Position numbers and translations under genes: made by a program
NCBI GenBank assembly: GCA_018970325.1
Contig: JAGWWP010000001.1
Coordinates: 7,889 to 71,888 of the forward strand
Reading direction: 5' to 3'
DNA length: 64,000 nucleotides
DNA from: Cyanobacteria bacterium REEB446
GTDB lineage: Bacteria > Cyanobacteriota > Vampirovibrionia > LMEP-6097
The notes under the pieces: generated by a model
The model's input: the letters and a program-made list of their open reading frames with translations, nothing else
The model's database searches: none
What the model was told of the DNA's origin: nothing
Part shown: positions 35,748-53,765 of the stretch, one piece after another
Layout of the letters: each line of letters begins with the position of its first letter
How positions within the stretch are numbered: the first letter of the stretch is position 1

Positions 35748-36826
35748 TTATTCATCTAAAGCCTCAATGCAAGAAAGCATTTGCCGAGGATTAGTGATAT
35801 AAGTATCTTGGCGTTTTTGCTCATCATTAGCAGCGTAAACTAATATCTTTCCATATTTTAAATCGGGGAAGGTTTTTTCAAAGTAATCTAAATTTTTTAA
35901 AAAATCCTTCGTAAAGGTTTCAGCAGATTTGATCTCTATAGGTAAATAACAGTTCCCGATATTATAAATGATATCAATCTCTTTCTGTGAGCCATCTCTA
36001 TAAAAACAAAGATTGTTTTTTTTGCCATTATTATAGCGGTGCTTAATCAATTCATTTATAACTAAATTTTCAAAAAGATTCCCTCTCAAAGGATGACTGT
36101 GAAGGTGTTTCTCTTTCTCTATATCTAATAAATAAGCTGCAAGGCCTGTATCGTAAAAATAGATCTTCGGTGATTTAATAAGCTGTTTTTTAATATTAGT
36201 AAAAAATGGTGGTAGCAGATAAATAATATAGCTAGCCTCTAATATACTGATCCACTCTCTAATAGTGTTGTGTGATACGCCTAGATCGTCTCCGAGGTTT
36301 TGATAGTTAAGAATCTGCCCGACTCGTCCAGCACAGAGTTTCAAAAATTTCTGGAATAAATGTAAATTTTTTAATTCGCTAATCTCTCTTACATCCCTCT
36401 CTACATAGGTTTTTATATAATCTCTCATGAAAGCCTCTACTGGAATGTCCTCCTCGTATAATTTAGGATAACTACCCTTAAAGATAAGCTCATCATAAGA
36501 AGGAGGTTCTTTATAATAACTACTAATTTCTTTTAGGCTGTATGGAAGTAAACTAATAATCGCGGTTCTGCCTGCTAAAGACTGGTTTATGGAGTCTAAA
36601 AGATTAAATTGCTGTGACCCTGTCAGGATAAACATTTCTTTGACTTTTTTTTCGTCGACTATTGCTTGAATATATGAAAGTAAAATTGGCACTCTTTGAA
36701 TTTCATCTAAGATTGCACCATCGGGGTATTGGTTTAAAAAGCTTTCTGGGTCATCCTGTGCGAAGCTTCTCGATTTAGGATGTTCTAAATTAACATAAGG
36801 CTTATTTTTAAAGATCTTTGTTAATC
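35748..36826 (-). pseudogene. N-terminally truncated DUF4143-type AAA+ ATPase (Walker A region missing)
   Basis: Open frame extends upstream of first Met to a TGA at ~36829 and encodes ...PESFLNQYPDGAILDEIQRVP... (Walker B region) but no P-loop. A short out-of-frame MLINKDL* sits at 36832. Confidence 0.45.
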
Positions 36827-36925: not shown

Positions 36926-39418
36926 TTACCCTCCCATAATCTCCTGTAACTGACACATCTGCGAGTCTTCATGAATGATTACCCCAGTAAATCCGAAGGC
37001 TTCTATAGTCTCATCTAGAGAGGATCTCTCTTGATAGTGCTCACTTAAAAATTCTAATAATTCATGCTTATATTCAGTATCTTCATTACCTCTTAGGTGT
37101 TTACCTTTAGTTTCTATGAGGATATAGTCGAATTTATTTTTCTGCTCAAGCTGTTTTTTAATTAGAAAATCTGGATAAATACGGCGTTTCTCCCAGCCTT
37201 GTAAATAATAGTCCTGACGCTCATTTATTCTATGCCACCAAGCGGTTTTACTGAAATCATATTCGAGCTGAGTTATACAGTTTCTCTCTAATTCATTAAA
37301 CCAAATGGCGTAAAGCGGACTGAAGAGATTTTTTTTCGCGAACTTGCCATCTTTTAACGTAAATTCTTCTAATTCTTTAGGGCTGTCTAGCTCTAGCTCT
37401 CTTGGTATCTCATAATATTCTTCCTGAAGAGAGAATTCTAATTTATTTTCCTTAGACCATTTTTTGAAGAGCTTTTCAGCTTCATTGTAAATTTGTTTTT
37501 GTAAATCTAATTTAATTTCTTCTATCAAACCTAAAGCATCTCTATGTTTACTAATTAGATCTAGATGAGGTTTTAGGATATCGTAAGCTATCCATGCGTT
37601 GGGGATTAGGTCTTTAAATTTCTGTAAAATATAAATCGCCTCTAGTGGAGCCTTTTCTCTATTTAAATTTTTTTCTATCGCATCTATATCGAAAAGTTTT
37701 AAAGTCTCTGAATCACGGTCACACACTATCTTTTTAATAGTATCGAACTGATCTGAATTTTCATAAGAGCTAAGCTCTTGTCTGAGCTTGATTTTAGACC
37801 AGTCTATTTCTGGGAGTATATGTTCTATCCAGTTAAATTCAGTAGATTCACCCGATTCTAGTTTTAAAGTTATTTTTGGAAGATAAATTTTGTCTTCTTT
37901 AAAATTTTCTTTTCTTTTGATTTTTACTTTTCTCGGATTTAGATTTTTTTGGGCTTCTGGATTATTTTCATCTTGAGTTCTTAGGGAGTTTTTTATATCG
38001 CCGTAACCATGCTCTTCTAAAGACTTCTTAATTCCATCTGCAACCTTTTTAACATTACTGTTAAACATATAAACGAAGCTTTCATTTAATTCAGGATAAT
38101 CTGGAATCTGTTTAGTATAAGGCTGCCGTAGGATTCGACCTAGCATTTGAGTTAAGGCTGTTTCAGCAAGGGTAGTATCTAAATTACATAATATATAAGC
38201 GAAAGGACAGTCCCAACCTTCTGCTATGGCATATCTCGTAATAATGTATTTAATTCTACACTTATGACTACGAAGCTCTATTTTCTCCAAATCATCTTTC
38301 TCAGAGGATTTAATGGCGATTTCTTCTAAAGGTATTCCAGTCTTTAGTAAGTAGTCTTTTACATCTTCTGCATGAATGTACTTAGAGTCTCTTGTGTCTT
38401 TCCCCGTTCTTTGAACTCGAATTAGCATGATGGGGCGAATATATACATCATCTTCTGCCTGATTCATTTCTGCGAATTTATCTAACTGCCTCAGCTTTTC
38501 TAAAGATCTATCTAAGCAGGTATTCCAGTTATTTCCAGCGGTCTGGGTTACAGTTATAGGCATCTTAATCATCTGTTCTTTCCAGAGATCGAAGCCCTTA
38601 GCTTCATAGAGAATGCTAGATCTCTCTGAGGGAGTGGCACTGAGTTCTAGAATAAAAGAAGGATTAAAATTAATAATATTTTCTTTTGCTTTGTCAGTTT
38701 TCTGTCTATGAGACTCGTCTAGAATAAATAGAGGCTGTTCTATGCGTATAAGATTAGCGAGAGAGTGCTTAATAGTGGTGTTAGGGAACTGTTTATAAGT
38801 GATAACGCTTTCACTGAAGCTATCTAAGTTCGGGAAGTTTTTTTTCAGGAAAAAATTATCACCAGCTTCAGTATATTCAGGAAAATAATTCGAGTAGAGA
38901 GCTGAATCATCGTAGATCTTACGCTTATCCTTAGTCTCCTTACCGATATTAAAAGATTGTATAGTTAGAACTAAGACGCAGAGATGAGTTTCTAAGTCAT
39001 TTTTCGTAATGCGACTCTCTTTATTAAAAATCTTCAGTTTACCGAAGGCACTATTCTTAAGGCTTACATGTAAAGGATGCTGAATATCATTTAACTGCTT
39101 TAAAGTCTGTTTGTAGATAGTATCAGAAGTAGTCACCCAGATTACTAAGCCACTGTGTTTTTTATAAAAATATTCTTGGATTTTTTCTATGCAGTGTGCT
39201 GCTAGATAGGTTTTACCGCCACCTGTAGGTAATTTAAAGCAGACTTTAGGTATGGGTTTGCCGTTAATATTCCTAACATTATGATAAGGATATTTTCTTT
39301 GGACTCCTTGAAAAGAACGTTCTATATCATCATGAAATTTGTATAGATTTTCTATAAATATAGCTAAATGCTCTAAAGCTTCTCTTTGATAGGATTTTAG
39401 CTCAAAAATACTTGCCAT
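36926..39418 (-). CDS. res: Type III restriction enzyme, Res subunit (helicase-nuclease)
   Basis: Walker A LPTGGGKTYLAA, DEAH-box ILDESHRQ, C-terminal PD-ExK nuclease motif RIYPDFLIKK...YILIETKGK; immediately downstream of mod. Confidence 0.85.
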   Translation of the reverse strand: MASIFELKSYQREALEHLAIFIENLYKFHDDIERSFQGVQRKYPYHNVRNINGKPIPKVCFKLPTGGGKTYLAAHCIEKIQEYFYKKHSGLVIWVTTSDTIYKQTLKQLNDIQHPLHVSLKNSAFGKLKIFNKESRITKNDLETHLCVLVLTIQSFNIGKETKDKRKIYDDSALYSNYFPEYTEAGDNFFLKKNFPNLDSFSESVITYKQFPNTTIKHSLANLIRIEQPLFILDESHRQKTDKAKENIINFNPSFILELSATPSERSSILYEAKGFDLWKEQMIKMPITVTQTAGNNWNTCLDRSLEKLRQLDKFAEMNQAEDDVYIRPIMLIRVQRTGKDTRDSKYIHAEDVKDYLLKTGIPLEEIAIKSSEKDDLEKIELRSHKCRIKYIITRYAIAEGWDCPFAYILCNLDTTLAETALTQMLGRILRQPYTKQIPDYPELNESFVYMFNSNVKKVADGIKKSLEEHGYGDIKNSLRTQDENNPEAQKNLNPRKVKIKRKENFKEDKIYLPKITLKLESGESTEFNWIEHILPEIDWSKIKLRQELSSYENSDQFDTIKKIVCDRDSETLKLFDIDAIEKNLNREKAPLEAIYILQKFKDLIPNAWIAYDILKPHLDLISKHRDALGLIEEIKLDLQKQIYNEAEKLFKKWSKENKLEFSLQEEYYEIPRELELDSPKELEEFTLKDGKFAKKNLFSPLYAIWFNELERNCITQLEYDFSKTAWWHRINERQDYYLQGWEKRRIYPDFLIKKQLEQKNKFDYILIETKGKHLRGNEDTEYKHELLEFLSEHYQERSSLDETIEAFGFTGVIIHEDSQMCQLQEIMGG

Positions 39419-39422
39419 AAAT

Positions 39423-41195
39423 TTAATCCTCTGAATCTTCTAGGTTATTTAAGACGTTAGCGGAATTGATTTGTAAGTACTGATAAGGGATTTGGCAGAT
39501 AATAGGTTTTTTCGTATACTTCTCTTTCTCAATAAGGCTTTTAATGCTTTTATTATCCACATAAATAGTGACAGCATAAATTAGTGCCTGATAGCCATTA
39601 TCACAGTCTTTTAGAATCTGCTCTAGCTTAGAGCGGCTTAAAGCATAATCGTGGTGCTTCAGTTTCTCTTTATCAGCACTGTATATTAGATAGAGTTTAT
39701 AGTTTTCGGTTTTACCGATGTAATGTGAAGCGTTTTCTGTTACGTTACTTAAAGCTTGATTAGTAGTGTGATAAAAAAGGTAGCTAGCAAGTGCCTCATA
39801 GCTAGGTAAGTCTTTTTCTAAAAATAGAGTATTTAAATGTAAAGCTTCTCCTAACTTTACTACGGTGAAGCTGCCGCCTAGACCTTCTTTAAGCTTAGGG
39901 TCTTTAGCTGTTGCTACACCTTCTATGCAGCGACGGATTCTTGCAGTGGTGATTTCGAAAATGTTTTTGAAGCCTTGCTTGGAGGCTTCTTCTGATTCTT
40001 CAGGCTGTTGTATTAGAATAAACTTCCTGCTTCCACCATCTTCTTTATTCATTTCTAGGACAGCGTGTCCAGTGGTTCCTGAGCCTGCGAAGAAGTCTAG
40101 GATTAGAAAATCTTTATCAAAGTCAGCTAAACTATTTAACAAGTGTTTGAGTAAATAAACAGGCTTAGAATAATTAAAGACAGGCTGTTCAAATATTTCT
40201 TTTAAATTTTCAGTTGCATTCTCGTAATTAAAAGATTTTTCACTGAGTATGGATCTTATTTTTGAGATTTTATTTTCCTCAAAGTAGATTTTTTCAAATA
40301 CGTCAAATCTTTTTTCACTCTTATTCTTAACAACTCTAACAATTAATTTGTTGATTTCTTTATTTACGGTATCTTTAGACCAACGCCATCTACCATCCTC
40401 ACCGTTAGATAGTTTAGGTAATATCTCTATAGCATTATTAGATTTTCTTTCTGTTGAAATTTCTGAGTTTTGTGCATCATAAAAAATAGGGAAATATTGA
40501 TTAGGAGCGTCACTCCTCTTTGAGTCAGCTCCACGTTTTCTGAGACCCCTTTCTTCATAAGCTTTTCCTTGATTATCAGATTTGTTATAATTTTCAATAC
40601 CTTTAATAAAACCAAATGGTAAAAGATTTGTTTTTAACTTACTGAAGCAAAGAATATATTCATGCTCAGATGCCGTGTGTTTCTTGGCTTGGTTACCACG
40701 GGGATTAGATCTTACCGTGAAAGTCTCTATATAATTATCTTCATCGAAAATTTCATCAAGCATGATTTTTATATGAAAAAATTCAACATCATTAATACTA
40801 ATAAAAATGACTCCGCTTTCTGAGAGCAGTTCCCTCGCTAATACCAAGCGTGGATACATCATACAAAGCCACTTATCATGCCTTTGTAGATCTTCTTTAC
40901 CGACCACGTTTCCAAGCCAGCTCTTTATCTGAGGGCTATTTAGATTATCGTTATAAACCCAATTCTCATTTCCAGTATTATATGGCGGGTCTATATAGAT
41001 GACATCAACTTTAGAAGCGAATTTGGGGATTAGAGATTTTAAAACTTCTATATTATCACCTTCGATAATCAAATTATCATCTAGACTGGGTTCTGGACTT
41101 AAGCTATCCTGCTGATCTATCTTCAGCTCCCTAACTGCTAGTGAGTGATGATAATTTATTACAGCGTCTTTTCCTTCCCAGATTAGTTCAGGCAT
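39423..41195 (-). CDS. mod: Type III R-M DNA methyltransferase, Mod subunit (beta-class N6A/N4C MTase)
   Basis: Motif [14 protein letters not shown] precedes motif [12 protein letters not shown] (beta-class order); mod-res gene order. Confidence 0.85.
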
Positions 41196-41289
41196 GATTT
41201 TCTCCCACGAATATGTAAGAGCCTAGGATTATGTCCTAGACTATGGTTTAGTTAATGATTACTTTAGTGAAAATACTAAAGTTTAAGGA

Positions 41290-41530
41290 AAGCTATTTAA
41301 TTTTTTATATCATTAAATAGCCGGGAGTTGATAAATCGCTACAGGACGACTACTGCAATCTTTAAGCCCGAAGGCTTTGGACATGCATTACAGTCTCCCG
41401 GCTTTTTTAAAACCGAGAGATATCGTTTTGACAGTCGGATATCTCTATCGACTGCCTGTAGTGAGGCTATCAAACCCCAAGGCTCTTTCCTTAAAAAGAA
41501 CCTCGTTATGAATTATAAACTAAGTTGAGC
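41290..41530. repeat. conserved ~240-bp structured element, copy 1 (candidate ncRNA / regulatory module)
   Basis: ~90% identical to 53822-54060 in the same orientation. GC hairpin agccgggag(41329-41337)...ctcccggc(41395-41402) followed by TTTTTT. Compensatory pairs between copies: ctacagg/cctgtag vs ttacaag/cttgtaa. Confidence 0.7.
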
Positions 41531-41683
41531 TGTTAGCTAAAAAGTTTATTGAACTAGAATCAATGAACGCCTCTTATATATTCGATTTGATAGGCTATGA
41601 ATTAGTATCAGCTGATCTTGAGTAAATCTTCACAGAAAACCTGAGCCATACAAAAGCTGAAGAGCAGTATAATTACAAAAAGA

Positions 41684-44347
41684 GTGTTAAAGAATGATGA
41701 AAAGCAAATAAAAATATTTGAGACTGGCTCTAAATGGCTAAGAGCTGATTTTCATCTACATACTCGTGCAGATAAAGAATTTATTTATACTAAAAACGAG
41801 AACGATTTTATAAGTGATTATATTAAAGGACTAAAAAAAGCTGATATTCGACTCGGCGTGATTACTAATCATAATAAATTTGACTTAAGTGAGTTTAAGG
41901 CACTAAGGAAGGCTGCTCGCAGAGAAGAAATTTGCTTGCTTCCTGGAGTAGAACTCTCTGTAAATGAAGGTAGTAGCGGGGTTCATGTACTAGTAATTTT
42001 TAATCCAGATGAATGGATAAAATCTGAGAGCGATTTAATTAATCCTTTCATTAGCTCAATGTTTCCTGGAAAAACTAAAATAGAATATGAAAACGAAAAT
42101 GCTAATTCGGATAAAAATCTTATAGATACCATTGAAGAGCTTGGTAAAAGGAATCTTGATTACTTCATAATTTTTGCTCATGTAGAAAATAACAAGGGAC
42201 TATGGAAAGAAGTCAATGGTGCTAAACTCACTCAATTTTTCACAGAAGAACGTTACACCGTTCTAAAAGAAAGATGTTTAGGATTTCAAAAAGTTCGCAC
42301 CCATGATGTTGCAGAGCATCCTTGTAGGCTTAAAGTTCAAAACCGGCTTGGTAATTGGTATCCAGCAGAACTAGAAGGTAGTGATTGTAAAAAAATAGAA
42401 GACATCGGTAAAGGCAAAACAACATATCTTAAATTAGGCAGCTTTAATTTTGAAGCGATAAAACATGCTCTATTAGATTATAAAAGCCGTGTCAGAGAGA
42501 GCCTTCCAGAAATCAAACATTCATACATCCAAAAAATCAGCTTCACAGAAGGAGTAGGGAGCTTATCCTCTCAGACAATAAATTTCTCAGCAGCTTTAAA
42601 TACTCTCATCGGCATTAGAGGCAGTGGTAAATCATCTCTCATAGAAGTTTTGCGCTATGCTTTAGATCTCTCTGTAGGAGATAATGATAAAAAATATAAA
42701 AATGATTTGATTGACAAAGCATTAGGCAGCTCAGGTAAGCTAATACTAAATCTAGTAGACTGTCATAATCAGGAATATGAAATTCATAAAATAAAAGATC
42801 AAAGCTCAGACATATATTTAAATGGCAATAAAATAAGTGGAATTTCTATAAAAGATACTATAATCCGTAATCCTATTTACTTTGGGCAAAAAGATTTAAC
42901 GGGATTATCATCAGAAAACACTCTAATTGAGAAATTCCTAGAAAGAGAATTAAGGGATATTCGCCTAAAAATTAATCAAAAATCTGATGAAGTAAAAACC
43001 TATCTAGATAAGCTTTCCAAAAGATCTAAGGCTGAAGAAGCTTATAAGGAGCAGCTAGGCATTATTACGAACAACACGCATAGATTAGAAACATATAAAA
43101 AATATAATTTAGAAGAGAAACTTAATGAAAGTCTAGAACTAGAGAAAGATTTAGATTACATAGAAAAAAGTAAATCTATAACAGAAGATTTTATAAATAA
43201 ATTCAATGTGTTCCTGAATACTTATACAGATACCTTAAAGAATTTTCCAATGCGTGAATCCAAGCACAATAAGGACTTAGTTAGCGAATCTATAAACAAA
43301 AATCAAGAATTTCAACAAATACTAGAGTCCTTAAAAATCTATTTAGGAAAGGCAGAAAAAATAAAAGAAGATTTCATTAATCTCTCAAACACTCTAGGAG
43401 CAAGAAAAGAATCTGCAAAAGAATCTTTTGCTGAGCTAGAAAGGAACTTAGCTTTAGAAATAGAAAACAGTTCAATCAAAAACATTAGTATAGATGATTT
43501 CAAAAAACTCACCGATGAACTCAGGAAAGCCCAAGGGATTGCAGATGAATTACTAAAAGTAATTAATGATGAAAAAAAACTCTCAGAAGCTTTTGAAAAT
43601 TCATTAAACGAATTAGAAAACCTTTGGTTAGAGGAATATAATCTAGCTAAAACGAAATTAAAAGAACTCTGTAAAGATACTAAATCCATATCCATAGAAT
43701 GTGAATACCAAAACAACAAAGAAGCTTTCCTAAACTTTATAAAGCAAATTTTTACTGGTAGCGGTAAGCAGCCTGTTACTTACAAAAAAATCAGTGAAGA
43801 GTTTAAGAATTTTATTGAATTGTATAGAACTTTAGAGAATAACTTTGAAGATAAAAAAAGCTTCTTTGGATCAAATCCAGAAGATTTTCGCAAACTCTTT
43901 AACGAAAAAATAAAAGAATTAATTACATATCAAACACCTAATAAGTACCTTATTAATTATCATGGTAAAAACTTATTACATCACTCTCTAGGACAGCGTG
44001 CATCAGCTTTAATAATATTTATTTTAACTCGTGGTGGTCACGACCTTATCGTGATTGATCAGCCAGAAGATGATTTAGATAATCAAACTATTTATGAAGA
44101 TGTTATTAAACTAATCCGTGAAATAAAACCTCAGGTACAGTTTATACTTGCCACTCATAATCCTAATATTCCAGTGCTTGCTGATGCAGAATTAGTACAG
44201 GTCTGCTCTTTTACTAATGAAAAGATAGAAATTAGCTCTGGCAGCATTGATGAACCAAATACACAGAAACAAATTATTAATATCATGGAAGGTGGCAAAG
44301 AAGCTTTTGATCGCAGAAAGGAAATATATAAAAAATGGAATCCCTAG
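41684..44347 (+). CDS. PHP phosphoesterase domain fused to SMC/ABC-type coiled-coil ATPase (Ppl-like defence protein)
   Basis: N-terminal PHP motifs ADFHLHT, ITNHN, GVELSV, HVLVIF; Walker A GIRGSGKSS; long coiled-coil; C-terminal signature/Walker B/His-loop ...LGQRASALIIF...LIVIDQPEDDLD...ATHNP. Confidence 0.65.
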   Translation: MLKNDEKQIKIFETGSKWLRADFHLHTRADKEFIYTKNENDFISDYIKGLKKADIRLGVITNHNKFDLSEFKALRKAARREEICLLPGVELSVNEGSSGVHVLVIFNPDEWIKSESDLINPFISSMFPGKTKIEYENENANSDKNLIDTIEELGKRNLDYFIIFAHVENNKGLWKEVNGAKLTQFFTEERYTVLKERCLGFQKVRTHDVAEHPCRLKVQNRLGNWYPAELEGSDCKKIEDIGKGKTTYLKLGSFNFEAIKHALLDYKSRVRESLPEIKHSYIQKISFTEGVGSLSSQTINFSAALNTLIGIRGSGKSSLIEVLRYALDLSVGDNDKKYKNDLIDKALGSSGKLILNLVDCHNQEYEIHKIKDQSSDIYLNGNKISGISIKDTIIRNPIYFGQKDLTGLSSENTLIEKFLERELRDIRLKINQKSDEVKTYLDKLSKRSKAEEAYKEQLGIITNNTHRLETYKKYNLEEKLNESLELEKDLDYIEKSKSITEDFINKFNVFLNTYTDTLKNFPMRESKHNKDLVSESINKNQEFQQILESLKIYLGKAEKIKEDFINLSNTLGARKESAKESFAELERNLALEIENSSIKNISIDDFKKLTDELRKAQGIADELLKVINDEKKLSEAFENSLNELENLWLEEYNLAKTKLKELCKDTKSISIECEYQNNKEAFLNFIKQIFTGSGKQPVTYKKISEEFKNFIELYRTLENNFEDKKSFFGSNPEDFRKLFNEKIKELITYQTPNKYLINYHGKNLLHHSLGQRASALIIFILTRGGHDLIVIDQPEDDLDNQTIYEDVIKLIREIKPQVQFILATHNPNIPVLADAELVQVCSFTNEKIEISSGSIDEPNTQKQIINIMEGGKEAFDRRKEIYKKWNP

Positions 44348-45498
44348 ATATAATATTAGCTACAGCTCGGGGAGAGGATTCCACTCACCAATTAAAAAGT
44401 AATTATTCTAATCTAGAGCAGCTTAGTGCAGATATGGTAGCGTTCAGCAATAGCCATGGAGGTAACATTCTTATTGGTATTCAAGAATTTAAAGATGAAG
44501 CCAATACCATAATCGGTCTTAGTGATCAGGAAATTAAAAATTTGAATCAAATGATTTCCAATGCAGCAAGTCAAGGAGTAATTCCAGCTATAAATCCCAA
44601 AACTTCTATTGTCGAAGTAAATAGCAAAATGGTACTAGTAATAGAAATTCCAGAAGGAATAAATAAGCCTTACCAAGATAAAAATGGTATCTTCTGGGTT
44701 AGAAGCGGCTCTGATAAACGTAAAGCTACGGCGAGAGAAGAATTACAAAGACTATTTCAGAATGCTGGTCTAGTACACGCAGATGAAGTTCCTGTAAGTG
44801 GTTCTAATATTTCTGACTTAGATTTAGATTACTTTAGTAAATTCTATGAAAAGCGTTTTGGCAGAAGCTTAGAAAATGAATTTCTCTCGCTAGATAAAAT
44901 CTTAGAAAATATGAATCTAGCTCAGAATCAGCAATTAAATCTAGCAGCGACCTTATTATTCAGCAAAAATCCAGACTTCCGCCTACCAGCATTTATTGTA
45001 AAAGCTCGTTCTTACTTAAGTGATACTACTAATGAGAATTCATATCTAGATAGTTTAGATATAAGAGGTAGATTAGCAGATGTTTTCCACAGATCAGTAA
45101 ATTTTATTTTGATGAATATTCATCATATTCAAGCTGGACAAAATGTCAACAGTGTAGGTGAATCAGAAATTCCTCGTATAGTACTAGAAGAGCTTATCGC
45201 AAATGCCTTAATGCACAGAGACTACTTTATCTCAGCACCTATTAGAATTTTTGTTTTTCCTAGTCGTATCGAAATTATCAGTCCAGGACACCTACCTAAT
45301 AACCTAAGCATTGAGAATATTAAAGCTGGTAACTCAAATATGCGAAACCCGGTCTTAGCTTCTTTCGCTGTCAATTTATTACCATATCAAGGGATCGGAA
45401 CAGGTATCCTAAGGGCTTTGAGTAACTATCCAGATATTGACTTTGAGAATGATCGTAATAATAACCAATTCAAATGTACTATTCACAGGAGTCAGTAA
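44335..45498 (+). CDS. AlbA_2 (Schlafen-like) + HATPase_c_4 domain protein (putative nucleic-acid-binding/ATP-binding regulator)
   Basis: N-terminal AlbA_2-like region (FSNSHGGNILIGI), C-terminal divergent GHKL motif ELIANALMHRDY; overlaps upstream gene by 13 nt. Confidence 0.6.
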   Translation: MESLDIILATARGEDSTHQLKSNYSNLEQLSADMVAFSNSHGGNILIGIQEFKDEANTIIGLSDQEIKNLNQMISNAASQGVIPAINPKTSIVEVNSKMVLVIEIPEGINKPYQDKNGIFWVRSGSDKRKATAREELQRLFQNAGLVHADEVPVSGSNISDLDLDYFSKFYEKRFGRSLENEFLSLDKILENMNLAQNQQLNLAATLLFSKNPDFRLPAFIVKARSYLSDTTNENSYLDSLDIRGRLADVFHRSVNFILMNIHHIQAGQNVNSVGESEIPRIVLEELIANALMHRDYFISAPIRIFVFPSRIEIISPGHLPNNLSIENIKAGNSNMRNPVLASFAVNLLPYQGIGTGILRALSNYPDIDFENDRNNNQFKCTIHRSQ

Positions 45499-45539
45499 AA
45501 TAATTTAAGATGTCTTTAAAAAAGCTACACGCTCAGAAT

Positions 45540-48500
45540 TCATTTTAAATCTTCTATTAATTTAGCCAATGCTATTCGATCAATCCACTCAATATTATGT
45601 TCTTGACTCATGCGACTTAATTCAGCCTGGTGACAATCTTTGTAGGTGCCATTCGTGATAAACATCGCTCTATCAATATTATAATAACTACTGTAGCTCT
45701 TTAAAACTTCGGGAAAACTCATTAATTTATTACGATCTCCGTAATCTTTACCCCCGTGTACATGTTTAACCTGTGCTGCGATTTGTTTGCCATTTTCATC
45801 ATCGAAAATAAAATCAACTCCAATATCTCTAGGTTTTTTGACCACATAACCTTTCTTTTCAAAAATACGCCTAATAATTTTCTCAAACTCTAGTCCCTGT
45901 TGGCTTTTATTTTGATATTTAATAGAATCTATCTCATCTAAAGAAGGAATTTTACTATCTGTATCTGTCTTGGGGTCTAGTTCTTTACTCATTTCTTTTA
46001 AGATGTCTCCTTCTGAAATATTTTGTGTATAACTCAAATCAAAGAGATTTTTTCTAGCTGTACGCTTTATTTCTAGCCTATCGTGAAGATTTTTCTCAAA
46101 AGTATGCTCTGCTACGAAATAGTACACATAAACATTTTTCTTCTGTCCCGTTCTATAAGCTCTACATGTAGCTTGATCTTCGACTGCGGGATTCCACCAA
46201 CGAGTTAGATGCAGCACATGATTAGCTTCTTGGAGGTTTAAACCCATACCAGCACAGCGTGGTGATAGAACTAAAGCTGAAAAACCATTTTCTGCCTGAA
46301 ATTTCTTTAAATTATCTTTTTTATCTTCCTCTGAAAGTTTACTGTTAATAGGAGCTAGACTTAAATTAAAATGATCGTTAATGAAGTCCTGGACTGCTTC
46401 TTGATAATGATTATATTCACAGAAAACTAAAGCTTTTTCATTTTTTTTCTTTATGTCTTTTAGTAAGTCTTTTAATTTACCTAAACGATCATTTTCAGTA
46501 AACCATTCTTGGAAATGAGGTTTAGTATAAATCTTGCCATTAGCAAGAAACCTATGTATGGAAGATTGTTTAATTAAACCTACTTTTTTCAGAGCAGGAT
46601 ATTTGCTTTTTAAAATACTATGTATGTGTTCCTCAGATTCTTCTTCAAGTTTAAAGGAAACGTTCGTTGAAACTAGTTCAGGGAGATCTTTCTTTAATTC
46701 AGGATCTTCTTTTAGCCGACCATTGGCATAGCCTTTAGTGAAATTGCCAAATTCTAGGCTTGTAATCAGATCTTTAAAACAACGTTCTCTTTCGCTATCT
46801 GGTAAATCTTGGTTAAAAAAAGCTTGATATTTTTTCCTAAAATCTTTTAATGATCCTAAAAGACCTGCATGAGAGCTATCCATAATATTCCAAAGCTCAG
46901 ACATATCATTTTCGATAGGTGTTCCACTCATGAGAATTTTAAAAGTAACATTAGTCGCTATCGCTTTTAATACAGTAGATACCTGCGTTTTAGCTGACTT
47001 AGCTTTTTGTACTTCGTCGCAGAGTAATAATGACCATGGAATTTGAGCGAAAGAATGCTGATAATTAACCATGGTGTCATAGGTGATAATGATGCATTTA
47101 TGTTTTAAAAGTAAATTTTTATCTAATAAAGGATAGCCTAGTTTCCCTTCAGGGACAGCTTTAGCACTGCTATCTCGGAAATATTTTTTAGGAGAAATCG
47201 ATTTAGCAGCTGTTTGAGAACCATGTAAAATAGTAAAATCAAATTCTTTACTATCTATAAAAAAATTTTTAGCTTGCTCCTCGAAGTTATCTAAAAGTAT
47301 AGGTGGAACTACTATTAAAATAGGCTTAAAATCTGTTTCGGGGAAACGCTTTTGCCAAATAGATCTCATTAGTAGTTTAATGAAACACATGGTCTGAAAA
47401 GTCTTACCTAAGCCCATATCATCAGCTAGAAGCACACCTGGATACGAAGCCATAAAGCAGTTTACCAACCATTCTATACATTGTTTTTGATAAGGGAAAA
47501 TATTAATCCCATCTTTCGTATCGATTAAACTCCAGTCTAAATGGGTGTTTAACTCATCAGTACTTTGTCTTTCATCATATTCTCGAATTTCGGCATTAGT
47601 CTGAATAATCAGTGCTTTATCATTCTCTGCTTTAGGAATGTTTTCAGAGTTAGTTTCTGCTTTTAGGCTTTTTTGAAATAATTTACTACCTTTATCTAAG
47701 CAGCTATTTATATAGTGAAAAGACTCTTGGCGCGTTATATCTAGTTCGACCTCATCACCTGTTTTGCTATCTTTTAGAAGATAGCTGCGTTGTGATTCTT
47801 TCGCTGCTAATTTAAGGTCTTCTTTAGCAATATTTAAATCTTCTTGATTGAGAAAAACGCTTTTATTTTCCTCTCCTTGATTTGAGTTGCCTAGATTAAT
47901 TTTTATAAAATTATCATCCTCTAAAATGACAGCATTTTGCTTATTATCTGCTTCTATAAGCTCATCCATGCCATCGAAAATTGTTTTCTGTTGAACTTTA
48001 CCAAACTGTCCTGGGATGACTATCGGTTTACCGATTCCTATTACTCTAGGACCGTATTGGCTAACATCTAGATTAAAAATATTATAGAACTCTGGAAGCT
48101 CTTTTAGAATTGAGCTATCAGAGTGATATTTTAATTTCTCAATTATTTCATCACTCGCCTTATGGTGATAATCGGTCTTTAATTTAAGGAGAGCCTTTTT
48201 AGTAGAGGGATTTAAGCCTAAATCTATATTCTCACCATTCGCTGTCCTAATTTTTATAGTATTGGACTGGGTATCCCAGATTCTTAAGCCTCTTTGTATC
48301 GCTTCTAAAGCTTTTTCTGTGCTTTCATATTTTAAAACCTCGCCTAACTCTTCATTAAAGGGTACTAAAGATGCTAAGTCTTCACTGCTACTAACTTCTA
48401 GAGATTTAGTGGCATATAAGTCGAACTTATTATAATGAAATATTTTTATGTCACTCAGTCTTAAATCATTTAGTAAAAGTGAATTATCACTATCATGCTT

Positions 48501-49193
48501 AGTAATCCATTCATGCACTTTCTGTAAAGCACTTATGATAACTGGATTATTCGCTGACCAGAGTTCCTTTTGATTTATATAACTATCAAAGAGTTGGTAA
48601 ATCCAGTATGGTAATACTGTAAGAGACTGCTTTTTAGCCTTAAGATTTAAATCTAAAATTAAGCCATTTTCTTTAACTTTATCTGTAATATTTTGAAAGC
48701 CATTTTCAGTTTTCATTGAAAGCCATAGCTCTACTTCACTACCGCTAAATTCAGCGGTTACTTTAAATTCTTTATTAGTGTTTAAGACAGGAAAATAATC
48801 TAAGATTTTTCTATCCTCATCTAAAGCTATTTTCAAGCTTAGAGTACCTTCACCTTCGCTATCTTCCTCCTCTTCCTCAGAGCTAAAATTAATTCCTAAA
48901 GTCTCAGCAGTTTCTTTATCTAAAGAGCTTTTCTGTAAATTAATTAGAAAATTATTTTTTAAATTCTCGTAATTTATAAAATAATCGCCATTATCATCAA
49001 TGTTGAAAAAATTTTTATTGTTTAAAACATTATAGATACTCAGATCGTCATGGAATGCCTTTTCTAGACTTAATCTTAGACCATGAAACACGGGCTTTAA
49101 TCTGAAGCGAGTCTTTAAAAAGCTTTTCCCTGTAGTTTTATTAGAACTCTTTTTTTTGAATAGATCTAAAAAGGCATTTAATGAACTAGGCAT
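45540..49193 (-). CDS. zorD: ZorD-like: SNF2-family helicase with C-terminal Mrr-type restriction endonuclease domain
   Basis: SNF2_N LLADDMGLGKTFQTM, DEVQ box LLCDEVQKAK, helicase C motifs, C-terminal Mrr_cat-like GLEFEKIIRRIF...IGVDFIFDD...QVKH; last gene of zorABCD-like operon. Confidence 0.6.
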   Translation of the reverse strand: MPSSLNAFLDLFKKKSSNKTTGKSFLKTRFRLKPVFHGLRLSLEKAFHDDLSIYNVLNNKNFFNIDDNGDYFINYENLKNNFLINLQKSSLDKETAETLGINFSSEEEEEDSEGEGTLSLKIALDEDRKILDYFPVLNTNKEFKVTAEFSGSEVELWLSMKTENGFQNITDKVKENGLILDLNLKAKKQSLTVLPYWIYQLFDSYINQKELWSANNPVIISALQKVHEWITKHDSDNSLLLNDLRLSDIKIFHYNKFDLYATKSLEVSSSEDLASLVPFNEELGEVLKYESTEKALEAIQRGLRIWDTQSNTIKIRTANGENIDLGLNPSTKKALLKLKTDYHHKASDEIIEKLKYHSDSSILKELPEFYNIFNLDVSQYGPRVIGIGKPIVIPGQFGKVQQKTIFDGMDELIEADNKQNAVILEDDNFIKINLGNSNQGEENKSVFLNQEDLNIAKEDLKLAAKESQRSYLLKDSKTGDEVELDITRQESFHYINSCLDKGSKLFQKSLKAETNSENIPKAENDKALIIQTNAEIREYDERQSTDELNTHLDWSLIDTKDGINIFPYQKQCIEWLVNCFMASYPGVLLADDMGLGKTFQTMCFIKLLMRSIWQKRFPETDFKPILIVVPPILLDNFEEQAKNFFIDSKEFDFTILHGSQTAAKSISPKKYFRDSSAKAVPEGKLGYPLLDKNLLLKHKCIIITYDTMVNYQHSFAQIPWSLLLCDEVQKAKSAKTQVSTVLKAIATNVTFKILMSGTPIENDMSELWNIMDSSHAGLLGSLKDFRKKYQAFFNQDLPDSERERCFKDLITSLEFGNFTKGYANGRLKEDPELKKDLPELVSTNVSFKLEEESEEHIHSILKSKYPALKKVGLIKQSSIHRFLANGKIYTKPHFQEWFTENDRLGKLKDLLKDIKKKNEKALVFCEYNHYQEAVQDFINDHFNLSLAPINSKLSEEDKKDNLKKFQAENGFSALVLSPRCAGMGLNLQEANHVLHLTRWWNPAVEDQATCRAYRTGQKKNVYVYYFVAEHTFEKNLHDRLEIKRTARKNLFDLSYTQNISEGDILKEMSKELDPKTDTDSKIPSLDEIDSIKYQNKSQQGLEFEKIIRRIFEKKGYVVKKPRDIGVDFIFDDENGKQIAAQVKHVHGGKDYGDRNKLMSFPEVLKSYSSYYNIDRAMFITNGTYKDCHQAELSRMSQEHNIEWIDRIALAKLIEDLK

Positions 49194-50754
49194 AATTAAT
49201 TTCTTCTCCAGTCTTAGGGTTTCTAGGGGTTAGCTCATATAGCTCTTTCATCATGCACGTAACGGACTCATTCCAAAAGCGATTACTACGACTAAAACGC
49301 CAGTGAGGAGATCTCCTGAATGATGCTTGATCTTTTTTTGCATCGTAAACTATATCTGTAAAAATGAAATAATCTCTAAGGCGAATTGGTACACTGATAT
49401 TTTTACCGAAATAAGTGTCATAAAACCTTAGAAGGATCTTCTCATTCTCAGAAAGAGAAGGTTTGTTTTTTATAGAGTTAATATTATAGACATATGCAGC
49501 AGTACCAGTGTCAACTGTTTCGAAAATCAATATTTGATCTATTTTGAGAACGAAAGATGTTAAAGAAGAGTGATTTAAAATTGGCTCTATAAATAAATCA
49601 ATATCTTTTTTTTCAGTTAATTTTTTAAATTGATTTATTTTATATCGATCAGGTAAAAAAATTCTAAAATCATCAGCATAGTATAAATATCTTTGCCAGC
49701 ACTCTTTACGCCCATGTTTATCTGGAGAGTCTTTAAAGGCAAACTCAAAGAATAAATTAAAGTCTTGTTCATTAAACCAATAGCGAATTTTTTTATATAC
49801 CCCTTCGTCACTTTCCTGTAGGATCTGCCACTCAGATTTATTAATACGAGGATCACCTAGTTTATTTTTTGTAAAAGACTTTATTTCGCTCTTTTCTCGT
49901 TCATTAATATTCCACTCTATTGTTTTAAATAGCTTAATAAAGCGCTCACAGCCTTTTCTGGAACGTAGATGAGTAAAAGCATGTAAAATATTTTTAAATA
50001 GATCGAAATTAGAGCGATTAGCCAAGTATTTTTCTAAAAGATAATGGAAGTATTTAGATAGAAGATGATCTATAAAAGAATCATTAGGAAAGAATTTCAC
50101 ATAAAATTTATTAGAGGCTATTTCTAAAATGCTTTCTGATAAATTTTCATCATTAATACTCTGATTTTCTAATAAAATAAATATTTTTTCTGCCTCTGCC
50201 TGAAAGTAGACTTGTTCACTTTTTTCTTTTCTATAAGTTTCAAAATCAAGTAGCAGTGAGTGTTTTTCAAACAGATTATTAATCTGTATTTTAGAATTAC
50301 TAAGTTGGAAAAACCAATCCTCTAAAAGCTCTAACCAAAAATCATCTTTAAATTCATAGTCCTCATTTAGAATTTGAAAACGCCAAATATAGTCATTAAG
50401 CCATCTTAATAAGATACGCTGCGGTTCCTGTCTTTTAATTAAATTTCTGAATTCTAATTCATCTTCAAGACCAGACATAGAGAGACCTAGACGAACTATG
50501 GTTTTTTTAATCTTTATATCATCAGGGTTTTTAAGATATTTTCCCCATTCAGTTTTTAGATCTCCAATCTTAGTTAAGCTAATAGTGTTAAGAGACTTAG
50601 TCTTTAGTTTTCTCAAGCGAGTAATTAATGGATTGAAATGTTTAATTACGTAAGTATTATGGTGATTGAAAAATTCAGAGCTAAAGTGGGAATACTCATT
50701 TGAAGCATCTAAGAGCTTGCTTAGAGATTCTTTGATTTTTAAAACTACACTCAT
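49186..50754 (-). CDS. zorC: ZorC-like protein (unknown function)
   Basis: Size (522 aa) and position between MotB-like and SNF2 genes with overlapping start/stop codons; no motif verified. Confidence 0.4.
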   Translation of the reverse strand: MSVVLKIKESLSKLLDASNEYSHFSSEFFNHHNTYVIKHFNPLITRLRKLKTKSLNTISLTKIGDLKTEWGKYLKNPDDIKIKKTIVRLGLSMSGLEDELEFRNLIKRQEPQRILLRWLNDYIWRFQILNEDYEFKDDFWLELLEDWFFQLSNSKIQINNLFEKHSLLLDFETYRKEKSEQVYFQAEAEKIFILLENQSINDENLSESILEIASNKFYVKFFPNDSFIDHLLSKYFHYLLEKYLANRSNFDLFKNILHAFTHLRSRKGCERFIKLFKTIEWNINEREKSEIKSFTKNKLGDPRINKSEWQILQESDEGVYKKIRYWFNEQDFNLFFEFAFKDSPDKHGRKECWQRYLYYADDFRIFLPDRYKINQFKKLTEKKDIDLFIEPILNHSSLTSFVLKIDQILIFETVDTGTAAYVYNINSIKNKPSLSENEKILLRFYDTYFGKNISVPIRLRDYFIFTDIVYDAKKDQASFRRSPHWRFSRSNRFWNESVTCMMKELYELTPRNPKTGEEINYA

Positions 50755-51479
50755 TTGTTTAAATCCTTGAGATTAGACTGTAGAGCAGCACGCTGTTCAT
50801 TAGATTTTACTCTTATCGTGATTTCTACTCTGCGACTAGCATCACGATTGATATTTAAGAAATTAGGATCATTTTTTATAGAGTTAATATTTAATAACAC
50901 TGAATTCCAGTCCGCACTATTCATGAGTTTAGTACCATATTTTAAATCCTGTTCTCCACGCCCAATTAAATATAGCCACGCCAAGAGAGTTTCATATCTT
51001 GCTTGAGTGCTTGGATTTTTTTGATAATGACTTAAAATATAAGTGCCGATACTTAAAGAACGATTTTGGCTTAAATCTAAATTATTATTATCGTCTCCTA
51101 TATCATCAGTAAATCCTTCTATGTAAACACCTTGAATATAATCTCTATATTTCTCATTTCCCATCAGTATTTCAATAACACGATTAATAAAAATCTGATT
51201 TAAAAACTTTTCACAGTCTTGATTACAGGAATCGCTAGCTGTAAGAAATTTTAACTTATCTTCTTTAACTTCTATAGTACAGGCTAAAGGATCATCTTTC
51301 TTAATGACACAAGATAGATCATCGTTTTTTAGTTCTTTATTAATCTTTTTACTAATCTCTTCAATTTTCGTTATACTGCCTCTAGCGTTATTCTGAGTGA
51401 GAGCTAGCATCAGCATAATAAACACAACCGCTAAGGAGGTCATTAAATCAGTCATTGAGGATTCTAATTTAAGTGCCAT
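50751..51479 (-). CDS. zorB: ZorB-like: MotB/OmpA-family protein (N-terminal TM anchor + OmpA-like peptidoglycan-binding domain)
   Basis: TM helix LMTSLAVVFIMLMLAL; OmpA-like motif VYIEGFTDDIGDDNNNLDLSQNRSLSIGTYIL. Confidence 0.6.
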   Translation of the reverse strand: MALKLESSMTDLMTSLAVVFIMLMLALTQNNARGSITKIEEISKKINKELKNDDLSCVIKKDDPLACTIEVKEDKLKFLTASDSCNQDCEKFLNQIFINRVIEILMGNEKYRDYIQGVYIEGFTDDIGDDNNNLDLSQNRSLSIGTYILSHYQKNPSTQARYETLLAWLYLIGRGEQDLKYGTKLMNSADWNSVLLNINSIKNDPNFLNINRDASRRVEITIRVKSNEQRAALQSNLKDLNK

Positions 51480-51494
51480 AAATTAAAACTTTTA

Positions 51495-53765
51495 TTATTT
51501 GGCACTCCACTGGCTACTTGTAATAGAATCTTCAAGATTTGAAATCAAAGACTGTAAATGACTAATTGCTTCTGTGTGCTGTTTGCTAAAGTCATTGAAA
51601 TACCCTTGCCCAGCATCTTTGATTTTATTAATAGATGAGGCCATTGATTCACCAGCTTTACCAAACTCATTAGTTATATCTAGTGTTAATTTATTAATTG
51701 CTTGGTAATCCTTATGTAATTGATCACTAGTACTTTGATGAGTTTTTAATAATTCCTTCTGCTCTTGCATGGCTGTTCTTAATAGATTTAGCTGCTCTTT
51801 GAAGTCCACATCCTTTTGCTCACTAGCTATGGTGATTTTATTTTGGAGTTCTATGAGCTTATCCATGGAATTCTGGATTTTTATAGATTCCTCTCTTAGT
51901 GCACTTACTCGCTGTAAATATTCACTTAATTCGGTAAGTGAGCTTCTTTGCGTTGCTGTCAGTTCATTTTGTTTATTAATGAAATGTGAGAACTCATTAT
52001 TTAATAAATTAGTTAACTTATCGAAAGCATAGTTTAATTGAGCTTGAGCGTTATTTAACTGCTCAGGCATAGATAGTGCTTGTCTACTTAAAATATCAAT
52101 ATTATTTTTTAACTCATGTAAAACGCTCTCTAGATTATCTTTTAAGCTGCTCATGCTACTAGTGAAGCTATGCTCCAAGTTTTTAATCTGAGATTCGTGT
52201 ACACTAGTGTTCTCTTGCTGCATTCTGTTATGATCTTCCTGAAAGCTTCTTGAAGAATTTTCAAAGATATTCTTCATCTCGAATAATAATTCACTACTCA
52301 ACTTAGAATTAGCTTCGCTAAGCTCAAAAATTTTATTAGTAATAAATTGCATACCTTCAGTGTGTTTACGTTGCATTTCATCTTGTTGAGTTACCAGATT
52401 AGCTGTTAATTCCTGATTTCTCAGCATAATATTCTCTAAAAGCTGATTTAGATTAGAACCTTGCTGATTATGTATCTCTTCAAAAAGATTTTTTACTAGA
52501 TCTGACATCTCACGCTGTGAATCAGAGAGACTTAATTTCATTTCAGCTGTAGATTTAGACATATCACCCAGTAAAGATTCCATAATCTCAGGAAGCTTTT
52601 CCATAGTGGTTTTCAAAGCCTCTATATCACTATTTAAACCTTTGGTAAGACTCTCTCTAAGTTCCTGTCCTATAGTACCTAAATGCTCAGACATACCATT
52701 CAAACCTGCCGCACTAAAATCTTTCATTGAATCGGAGACTTTAAACATCTCATCTTTTATATCTGTCACTAAATTTTTAACTCCAGATGTCTCATTTTTA
52801 ATATCTGAAACTGCATTTTTTACACTTTCTTCAATTGATTTCTCTATATTCTCCAAAATACTGCCAGTACCTTTAGTTTTATGAAAATAGCTTTCTATCT
52901 GACCAGGTATTTGTTTAATATCTTTCTGCATCACTATGAGTAAATCCTGAGTGGTTAATCGCCTGAAATTTCTATTCAACTCATAGATAATGCTAGACAG
53001 AGTTTCATGCATTTCATGCTCTTTATTTTTAATAGTGATCTCTGCATTAATGGCTAAAATCAAACCTACTATACTGGTAATAAATTTTGCAGATAGTGCA
53101 TTAATAAAATCATCTAAGCCTGTTATATCCCCCCCTCCTGCTTCCTGTCTGACTACACTCAAACCAGCAGTAAGAGCGATAAAAGTAAAAAGCAGTCCAG
53201 TACTGGTAAAGAAGCTAGGATAATGCTTCAGTCTAAATACATAAGGACTTACTATAGTATTAACTTTAAAAAAATCTTCAGCTTGATAGACATTCATTAG
53301 CTGTTCTTTATACTCATGCACGCCCTCAGAAAACTCTTTCCATGCATGTTCTAGACTAATATACATAGAACTTTGAAGATTTGTCTCAGAATATGGTTCG
53401 TCAAAGTATTTATTGATTTTCGCTTTAAGTTCATAAGAACTATGCGATTCTTTTATGAGCTGATAAAAAGCTTTTAAATCCTTTATCCCAGATTCTGTTT
53501 CAGCTAAATTTGCTTGATAGGGATTACTATTTAAATTTAAAACTTTTATTTTATTTTTACATGCAAACCAGATGGAAGCCAAAAAGCCATAAATGAGTAT
53601 AAGCACTGTAATCTTAATACCAAAAATACCAGAGCTGGAATCTTGATTACCATTCCACCAATTTATAAACTGACTTGACCACGTCCGAGGATCACACAGG
53701 AACAGCGTTAAATCAAGATTTAAAATTTTAAAAATATTAAACTGTGGTAACAATGTAGAACTCAT
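51495..53765 (-). CDS. zorA: ZorA-like: MotA/ExbB-type membrane protein with ~500-aa C-terminal helical/coiled-coil tail
   Basis: TM helices (ILIYGFLASIWFAC; GLLFTFIALTAGLSVV; ITSIVGLILAINAEITI) resembling MotA/ExbB core, then long heptad-rich tail; 15 bp upstream of MotB-like gene. Confidence 0.55.
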   Translation of the reverse strand: MSSTLLPQFNIFKILNLDLTLFLCDPRTWSSQFINWWNGNQDSSSGIFGIKITVLILIYGFLASIWFACKNKIKVLNLNSNPYQANLAETESGIKDLKAFYQLIKESHSSYELKAKINKYFDEPYSETNLQSSMYISLEHAWKEFSEGVHEYKEQLMNVYQAEDFFKVNTIVSPYVFRLKHYPSFFTSTGLLFTFIALTAGLSVVRQEAGGGDITGLDDFINALSAKFITSIVGLILAINAEITIKNKEHEMHETLSSIIYELNRNFRRLTTQDLLIVMQKDIKQIPGQIESYFHKTKGTGSILENIEKSIEESVKNAVSDIKNETSGVKNLVTDIKDEMFKVSDSMKDFSAAGLNGMSEHLGTIGQELRESLTKGLNSDIEALKTTMEKLPEIMESLLGDMSKSTAEMKLSLSDSQREMSDLVKNLFEEIHNQQGSNLNQLLENIMLRNQELTANLVTQQDEMQRKHTEGMQFITNKIFELSEANSKLSSELLFEMKNIFENSSRSFQEDHNRMQQENTSVHESQIKNLEHSFTSSMSSLKDNLESVLHELKNNIDILSRQALSMPEQLNNAQAQLNYAFDKLTNLLNNEFSHFINKQNELTATQRSSLTELSEYLQRVSALREESIKIQNSMDKLIELQNKITIASEQKDVDFKEQLNLLRTAMQEQKELLKTHQSTSDQLHKDYQAINKLTLDITNEFGKAGESMASSINKIKDAGQGYFNDFSKQHTEAISHLQSLISNLEDSITSSQWSAK

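Follow-up and report, generated by a model that had tools for sequence, protein, structure and literature searches.

A coupled trlF–trlG gene pair in a cyanobacterial defence island: a Ppl-related candidate for a second-line defence module

A 64,000-nucleotide (nt) stretch of the genome of Cyanobacteria bacterium REEB446 (GenBank assembly GCA_018970325.1, contig JAGWWP010000001.1, positions 7,889 to 71,888; here called the window, in whose numbering coordinates are given) carries two overlapping genes on one strand, lying between a Type III restriction–modification (R-M) system and a Zorya system. Judged by sequence, the pair is the already published trlF–trlG operon and not, as a preliminary description of this DNA had proposed, a new two-gene variant of the defence system Ppl. 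Our best explanation, to which we give slightly better than an even chance, is that trlFG is a mobile, self-contained two-gene cassette, a Ppl-related module for second-line defence of the abortive type, with TrlF as sensor or gatekeeper and co-effector and TrlG executing or licensing arrest. Both open reading frames (ORFs) were confirmed on the same strand, trlF with a GTG and trlG with an ATG start; the GTG of trlF is the sole in-frame start upstream of family-invariant residues.

41684..44347, plus strand: trlF, encoding an 887-residue protein with a PHP (polymerase/histidinol phosphatase) phosphoesterase and an SMC/Rad50-like ABC (ATP-binding cassette) ATPase (ORF; NCBIfam NF045780; AlphaFold2 (AF2) and Foldseek)
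44335..45498, plus strand: trlG, encoding a 387-residue Schlafen/AlbA_2 and GHKL protein of 'Schlatpase' architecture
44335..44347, plus strand: trlF/trlG overlap of 13 nt (translational coupling)

The first protein belongs to the TrlF family. The NCBIfam TrlF-family profile NF045780 matched residues 15–883 at profile positions 2–944 of 944, with 524.8 bits against a cutoff of 350 (E = 7e-157), and a full-length alignment of 884 columns showed 42% identity to TrlF of Photorhabdus caribbeanensis (L063:5986-8613; E = 0). By comparison, the Ppl equivalog NF042955 reached only 157.7 bits against a cutoff of 1000, and the Spaf_1101 profile 175.5 bits against a cutoff of 475. Homology to Ppl, as claimed earlier, is nonetheless clear: the PADLOC Ppl model (PDLC02208) matched TrlF with E = 2.7e-39, and BLASTP with Ppl WP_015059139.1 aligned both ends, and these only, at 29% identity over residues 14–327 and 30% over residues 719–880. 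TrlF and Ppl (Gao et al. 2020; NF042955) have in common an N-terminal PHP domain, a Walker A motif, a coiled coil, an ABC signature with Walker B and H-loop, and a MEGG..AF tail. They differ in that the coiled coil of TrlF could not be aligned to that of Ppl and that the last PHP motif reads GSDAH(H) in Ppl but GSDCK(K) in TrlF; plasmid Ppl genes match TrlF residues 14–327 only. As the TrlF profile is passed, the Ppl equivalog is failed and only both ends align, these comparisons make protein 1 a sister of Ppl that shares its architecture, and not Ppl itself, for which it had first been taken.

41726..42508, plus strand: PHP nuclease domain, residues ~15–275 (predicted local distance difference test (pLDDT) ~90; Foldseek)
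42611..42637, plus strand: Walker A / P-loop GIRGSGKSS, residues 310–318 (aligns with Rad50 and Ppl P-loops)
42911..43669, plus strand: antiparallel coiled-coil insertion, residues ~410–662 (AF2 helices 410–473, 477–519, 530–592 and 603–662)
43979..44173, plus strand: ABC signature SLGQRAS, Walker B IDQPEDDLD and H-loop ATHNP, residues ~766–830 (invariant in an alignment of 24 sequences)

The motifs that the preliminary description had quoted for this PHP, Walker A, coiled-coil and ABC architecture are all present in the translation. In the AF2 model the PHP barrel is confident at residues ~17–270, and its Foldseek matches were RNase AM (7ug9), 3o0f / BAD_1165 and the PHP domains of Pol III alpha or PolC. 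Across the 24 aligned TrlF sequences, the PHP ligands D22, H26, D30, H63, E90, H101 and H166 are invariant and H24 and D234 are kept in at least 90%; in the ATPase, G310, R312, G313, S314, G315, K316, S317 and S318 of Walker A are invariant, and the Q-loop is invariant or nearly so. Foldseek matched the ATPase head to SMC, MukB, JetC, Rad50, RecF and LmuB, and the coiled-coil region to proteins of the SMC, MukB, JetC and Rad50 type. Pfam recognized nothing but the ATPase (AAA_21, AAA_23 and, below its cutoff, SMC_N), and PADLOC added weak matches to AriA, PtuA and LmuB. A sequence search found no close relative with a solved structure, and the top 50 Foldseek matches held no Ppl structure.

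These structural resemblances to Rad50, SMC and RecF, together with weak Rad50 sequence matches, are the points in favour of a housekeeping DNA-repair ATPase (SbcC/Rad50, RecN or RecF type) mistaken for a defence gene. We regard this explanation as already refuted. The Rad50 profile matches span ~80–90 residues with E values of 6e-5 to 1e-4, far under cutoffs of 700–1000 bits, and the best that the PDB offered was a Rad50 match with E = 0.0046; no full-length match to SbcC, RecN or RecF was obtained. Moreover, TrlF has an N-terminal PHP domain, is a full-length member of its own family, and is patchy and mobile in its distribution. With the linkage of the homologues also conserved (see below), the earlier proposal came through this comparison intact.

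The operon was first described in Photorhabdus laumondii, where the 'temperature restriction locus' (TRL) trlR-trlF-trlG halts growth at 36 °C (Hapeshi 2020, bioRxiv 10.1101/2020.06.02.129163; PMC7554251). Its published components are trlR, a 79-residue regulator, trlF, a 'histidinol phosphatase', and trlG, which encodes ~385 residues and was mis-annotated as recG (PMC7554251). Operon transcription rises upon temperature upshift, and growth at 36 °C returns when the operon is deleted or trlG carries point mutations (PMC7554251). In the window both proteins recur in this order, their genes again overlap at the junction, and TrlG is 53% identical, end to end, to the P. caribbeanensis copy (L063). 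The Pfam domains of TrlG lie here at residues 14–131 and 301–366, matching the published positions of AlbA_2 (14–128) and HATPase_c_4 (298–365; PMC7554251). There are two differences: the window has no upstream trlR, and the Photorhabdus site was described as polA–dsbA whereas here the pair sits in a Type III R-M / Zorya island. A trlR homologue was found neither in the window (best tblastn E = 0.66, outside the leader) nor in 79 of the 80 other loci, and a search for an equivalent gave no TrlR-like ORF in the 488-nt leader or elsewhere in the window. As TrlR is absent here and from 79 of 80 loci, and confined to Photorhabdus among the 80 species-level loci, it does not belong to the core of the family.

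To follow the linkage of the two genes, one genome per species was surveyed, and the best 80 of at least 585 TrlF relatives were kept. Directly downstream of trlF lies trlG, the AlbA_2/HATPase_c_4 neighbour that the preliminary description had suggested looking for, in 68 of the 79 informative loci, spread over many phyla. A reciprocal survey that started from TrlG relatives in metagenomes found TrlF directly upstream in 64 of 77 informative loci, with the same junction, and gene order and orientation were always the same. In all 68 linked loci the trlG ATG stands 10–28 nt before the trlF stop and is preceded by a Shine–Dalgarno (SD)-like GGAG/AGAGG, which lies within the conserved K-E-I/V-Y codons of trlF. 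Pairwise identities of TrlF and TrlG correlate with r = 0.89 across 109 loci (maximum of 999 permutations, 0.13), which shows co-inheritance and not physical contact, because any two co-transferred genes would give such a correlation. In four loci (L084–L087), trlFG is inserted alone, with a 2-oxoacid oxidoreductase gene on one side and tatA on the other, and the pair thus behaves as a self-contained cassette. Together, these data support trlF–trlG as a conserved, translationally coupled two-gene unit, and this part of the preliminary description holds.

Comparison of the window with its nearest relative (L001) showed a mosaic: trlFG and its leader (41391–45540) are 86–99% identical, and the adjacent zorD (45540–48980) is 50–78% identical. 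This pattern fits either a recent cassette exchange or a fast-diverging zorD. The idea that the leader is better conserved than the genes was dropped, as the leader is ~98% identical to that of L001 yet trlG reaches 93–99%.

The linkage is not absolute. TrlF stands alone in 9 of the 79 loci and TrlG in 13 of the 77, and solo TrlF is present on E. coli IncF plasmids, so that the partnership is not obligate. Such cases are what one would expect if a Ppl-like nuclease and a Schlafen–GHKL protein each provided defence as a single gene, independently of the other, and did no more than share a place in defence islands; Ppl functions as a single gene, and Schlafen–HisKinase proteins are widespread as stand-alone genes. 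We consider independent action of the two proteins quite improbable in view of the 83–86% linkage in both directions, the overlap with its embedded SD sequence that is invariant across phyla, the correlated identities, and the constant order and orientation. Ppl itself differs on this point: in the single genuine Ppl locus that was inspected (L169), the gene stands alone and lacks an AlbA_2 neighbour, whereas trlF has a coupled partner.

The commonest immediate neighbours of trlFG are R-M families or modification-based defence genes. Of the 80 genome loci, 19 have Type I HsdR or HsdS flanking the cassette, and on the E. coli IncC plasmid pMyNCGM603 (L171, LC744502.1, 144604–155374) the order is hsdR-trlF-trlG-hsdS-prrC-hsdM, with trlFG at 147573–151357. 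A BREX (bacteriophage exclusion) locus (L005, 3096–12851) reads PglX-TrlF-TrlG-BrxHI, and PglX is also present at two further loci (L003 and L076). Type III Mod lies directly upstream of trlFG in three loci (L040, L052 and L061), HmaA beside it in another (L075) and a Type IIG enzyme in yet another (L054). The layout of the window, Res-Mod / TrlFG / ZorD, recurs in L001 and L083, both of which are metagenome-assembled genome (MAG) or metagenome contigs; the lineage is uncultured. Among plasmids, 904 records carry a TrlF homologue and 654 of these are conjugative; the Prokaryotic Genome Annotation Pipeline (PGAP) labels plasmid homologues 'TrlF family AAA-like ATPase'. A phage-borne origin was considered and rejected, TrlF being nearly absent from viral contigs (two weak matches in IMG/VR).

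Across these loci, trlFG recurs as an apparent passenger of defence operons that rely on modification. It shares this habit with the anticodon nuclease PrrC, which is likewise embedded in R-M operons; trlF–trlG and PrrC occur in a single Type I R-M operon on pMyNCGM603 and also in L024–L026, of which L024 is from Enterobacter sichuanensis. In the former case, a conjugative plasmid of the resistance type would carry two putative backup modules in a single R-M operon. Schlafen-ATPase or HisKinase genes in BREX and R-M loci are presumed to be backup RNases in two published surveys (PMC13462974; PMC12839542, the latter on BREX), of which the passages searched do not mention a PHP–ATPase partner.

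Context and homology together strongly suggest a role in defence. They also bear on the explanation that was proposed first, namely that the locus is a physiological growth or stress regulator that halts replication at high temperature or guards against insertion sequence (IS) activity. Temperature restriction is indeed the sole experimental phenotype, and both the induction upon temperature upshift and the growth of the deletion strain at 36 °C agree with such a regulator. Nonetheless, we judge it to be very unlikely, a shade more so than independent action of the two proteins: trlR occurs only in Photorhabdus among the 80 species-level loci, the distribution of trlFG is patchy, plasmid-borne and cross-phylum, the pair is found repeatedly inside R-M and BREX operons, and the copy in the window lies in a defence island between ffh/ftsZ and nuo/mrp-type genes.

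44374..44727, plus strand: AlbA_2/Schlafen domain of TrlG, residues 14–131, with Schlafen box VAFSN (Pfam PF04326, E = 4.9e-22)
45163..45432, plus strand: GHKL/Bergerat ATP-binding domain of TrlG, residues ~277–366 (Pfam PF13749, E = 6.4e-12)

The second protein is of the AlbA_2 and GHKL type, and this, its 13-nt overlap with trlF and the location between Type III R-M and Zorya were all confirmed as first described. Its GHKL domain (HATPase_c_4 at residues 301–366) shows an N-box E286...N290 (EELIANALMHRDY), SPGHLP and G-x-G-x-G; E286, N290, S316, P317, G318, G353, G355 and G357 are invariant across TrlG, and the Asp of the G1 box is replaced by Ser (SPGHLP). The Glu and Asn are spaced as are E314 and N318 of RzAgo, the two residues that coordinate Mg-ATP there (bioRxiv 10.64898/2026.05.29.728809). 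In the Schlafen domain the box VAFSN is invariant, whereas the catalytic motif departs from the canonical one: active Schlafens have E-x4-(D/E)-x-K (PMC13056530; bioRxiv 10.64898/2026.05.29.728809), and TrlG reads E14-DSTH-Q19-L-K21, that is, E-x4-Q-x-K. Gln occupies this +5 position in all 167 parsed TrlG sequences, in 74 of the 77 metagenome loci and in 82 of 98 parsed 50%-cluster representatives, the canonical Glu being found mainly in the most distant representatives of the clade that surrounds TrlG. Both Cash E17Q/D22N and RzAgo D32A are inactive. As the GHKL residues are kept and the Schlafen motif carries Gln, TrlG probably binds and hydrolyses ATP, and a canonical RNase activity of the Schlafen type is unlikely.

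Gln19 was also considered as a mark of TrlF-linked proteins and rejected, as solo TrlG genes and longer forms of ~480–530 residues carry it too. A large Schlafen–GHKL clade (representatives P0241–P0390), some members of which have ~480–530 residues, shows E-x4-Q-F-K instead of E-x4-(D/E)-x-K; recent literature takes Schlafen–HisKinase proteins to be RNase effectors. Compared with the Schlatpase or Schlafen–HisKinase proteins, TrlG has the same combination of an AlbA_2/Schlafen (SLFN) domain with a PF13749 GHKL domain, keeps VAFSN and the GHKL E...N, and shares the association with R-M and BREX. Unlike these, it has E-x4-Q-x-K, lacks a prokaryotic Argonaute (pAgo), NACHT or winged helix-turn-helix (wHTH) extension, and is coupled to an upstream PHP–ATPase instead, a partner on which the searched passages of the papers on those proteins (bioRxiv 10.64898/2026.05.29.728809; PMC13056530; PMC12839542) are silent.

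The Gln variant bears directly on which of the two proteins is the effector. The preliminary description cast TrlG as sensor or regulator, and in the explanation that we rank second, TrlF would be a partner-dependent Ppl that serves as nuclease effector, and TrlG would be a non-catalytic sensor or regulator, responsive to nucleic acid and ATP, that licenses TrlF. The substitution of Gln for an essential Schlafen acid throughout the TrlG clade speaks for this assignment, as do the loss of activity upon equivalent substitutions in Cash and RzAgo, the retention of all PHP and ABC catalytic residues in TrlF, and the autonomous exonuclease activity of the relative Ppl (PMC12904381). The Photorhabdus genetics speak against it. 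All 22 stable heat-tolerant mutants, from several lineages and two laboratories, were hit in trlG (20 single-nucleotide polymorphisms and two IS insertions) and none in trlF (PMC7554251), although trlF is the 2.3-fold larger target (2.6 kb versus 1.16 kb; PMC7554251) and TrlF as sole effector predicts rescue mutations in trlF at least as frequently as in trlG. Solo TrlG genes with the same E-x4-Q-x-K motif exist as well. Of the earlier claim, a non-nuclease TrlG is thus favoured by the Gln variant, while its counterpart, TrlF as the effector, does not sit well with a set of arrest-loss mutations that lies wholly in trlG. Overall, we regard the assignment of effector function to TrlF under the licence of TrlG as an unlikely yet serious contender.

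We prefer the model with TrlF as sensor or gatekeeper and TrlG as executor because the Photorhabdus genetics make TrlG necessary for arrest. The published argument that loss of trlF is harmless fails, as deletion of the operon also removes trlG, and it is possible that TrlF restrains TrlG. A classical toxin–antitoxin pair with TrlG as antitoxin was rejected since trlG loss-of-function mutants are viable and free of arrest; arrested Photorhabdus cells, too, stay viable (PMC7554251). In the preferred model, TrlF would act on nucleic-acid ends under nucleotide control, by homology with Ppl, which is reported to be a nucleoside triphosphate (NTP)-inhibited 3'-5' exonuclease of single-stranded DNA that senses or needs 3'-OH ends (review PMC12904381). 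TrlF would sense such ends, and probably also attack them, and TrlG would impose or license growth arrest. Translational coupling, suggested by the conserved overlap, may keep the output of TrlG in constant proportion to that of TrlF. The Schlafen domain of TrlG, short of one canonical catalytic carboxylate, is predicted to bind nucleic acid, and its GHKL domain probably drives ATP-dependent oligomerization, as in SLFN-pAgo, where an SLFN and GHKL supradomain forms an ATP-oligomerized abortive tRNase effector and GHKL drives oligomerization (bioRxiv 10.64898/2026.05.29.728809). Heat in Photorhabdus would then set the module off spuriously, as a form of autoimmunity.

The pairing of a coiled-coil ABC ATPase with a second protein is shared with PARIS (AriA/AriB), Lamassu (LmuB/LmuA) and Septu (PtuA/PtuB). 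However, in trlFG the ATPase itself bears a PHP nuclease and the partner is a Schlafen–GHKL protein, not a Toprim, Cap4 or HNH protein. By analogy with these systems a guard-type trigger is putative at most for trlFG.

Several points weigh against trlFG as a defence cassette of this kind. Phage defence was not proposed in the original description (PMC7554251), no paper found in the searched literature treats trlFG as a defence system, and the sole recorded phenotype of the pair is the restriction of growth by temperature. Besides the solo genes counted above, some genomes (e.g. L084–L087) carry trlFG among housekeeping genes. The C-terminal ATPase lobe of TrlF is of low confidence (low pLDDT) in the AF2 model, and, with Gln at the essential second acid of its Schlafen motif, TrlG may not be a nuclease. 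In addition, two HisKinase-type Schlafens tested alone gave no protection against phage (PMC13056530), a result that is compatible with the requirement for a partner without proving one.

A more far-reaching version of the preferred explanation can be put forward only tentatively. It would make trlFG a widespread yet hitherto unrecognized two-protein immune system in which a Ppl-like, nucleotide-gated DNA-end sensor/nuclease, TrlF, controls the Gln-variant TrlG, arrest proceeds otherwise than through Schlafen tRNA cleavage, the pair forms a backup layer in R-M, BREX and Zorya loci, and the temperature restriction of Photorhabdus is heat-triggered autoimmunity.

Within the window, the pair lies in a defence island of ~34.2–55.1 kb that is bordered by ftsZ/ffh on one side and a nuo/mrp-type gene on the other; no tRNA or integrase genes were found in the window. 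The left flank is formed by the Type III Res and Mod genes (36926–41195, minus strand) and the right flank by ZorD, ZorC, ZorB and ZorA of a Zorya I system (45540–53765, minus strand), both detected by PADLOC. While ZorA, ZorB and ZorD are clear, ZorC (49186–50754, minus strand) is very divergent, with a best PADLOC E value of 8.6e-08. The island further contains two DUF4143/AAA_14 genes and a Fic gene. The former, at its left edge, encode ATPases (34203–35429, plus strand, and 35748–36692, minus strand; PADLOC candidate PDC-S01), the second of which lacks most of the N-terminal part of AAA_14; a DUF4143/AAA_14-related gene also lies near trlFG in L084–L086. The Fic-domain protein (54072–55124, minus strand) has weak SoFic / PDC-S04 matches and ends 13 nt from the right copy of the repeat described below. 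Farther right is a weakly STAND-like P-loop NTPase (57399–59240, plus strand). Beside ftsZ, an ORF of 1078 residues (27808–31044, plus strand) without a Pfam match encodes a repeat-domain protein to which no function was assigned; it contains an internal duplication of ~1.34 kb, with three repeat segments that are 78–84% identical and repeats at 28278–28858 and 29628–30199.

41196..41683, plus strand: leader / divergent promoter region of 488 nt, the mod-to-trlF gap, which holds the left copy of a 227-nt repeat

This 227-nt direct repeat is present in two copies only (41299–41525 and 53834–54059; ~91–100% identical; spacing 12,535 bp), which bracket exactly the trlFG and zorABCD block. Both copies include a strong hairpin (GCCGGGAG...CTCCCGGC), after which the plus strand has a run of T. 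As DNA, the hairpins fold with z scores of -4.9 and -4.2 for the two copies, and the leader copy reaches -2.6 as RNA; differences between the copies lie mostly in loops. Elsewhere, the repeat was found only in the near-identical L083, while the L001 contig ends inside it. A scan of the window at Rfam gathering thresholds gave no matches, and a permissive scan returned sub-threshold, sRNA-Xcc1-like matches in both copies (27–28 bits versus a gathering value of 53). A 66-residue ORF within the repeat (41328–41528) was rejected as not coding because the second copy lacks the start codon and has gained a stop. An integron attC site was likewise rejected: no canonical GTTRRRY/RYYYAAC cores were seen by eye, the window has no integrase or tRNA, and there are two copies only. 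The repeat could be a recombination scar, a cassette boundary, a small RNA or a terminator.

Thousands of genomes from a wide range of phyla carry the trlFG pair, as do hundreds of conjugative plasmids, among them IncC and IncF plasmids of Enterobacteriaceae. Placing it beside Ppl and the Schlafen–GHKL effectors, together with its repeated location inside R-M and BREX operons, turns the temperature phenotype of Photorhabdus into a testable immune hypothesis, and draws attention to a large Schlafen clade that is assumed in the literature to consist of RNases, though it falls short of one catalytic carboxylate. If the preferred explanation is true, the single-gene system Ppl would gain a relative made of two genes, and the lack of protection by HisKinase-type Schlafens tested alone could be accounted for.

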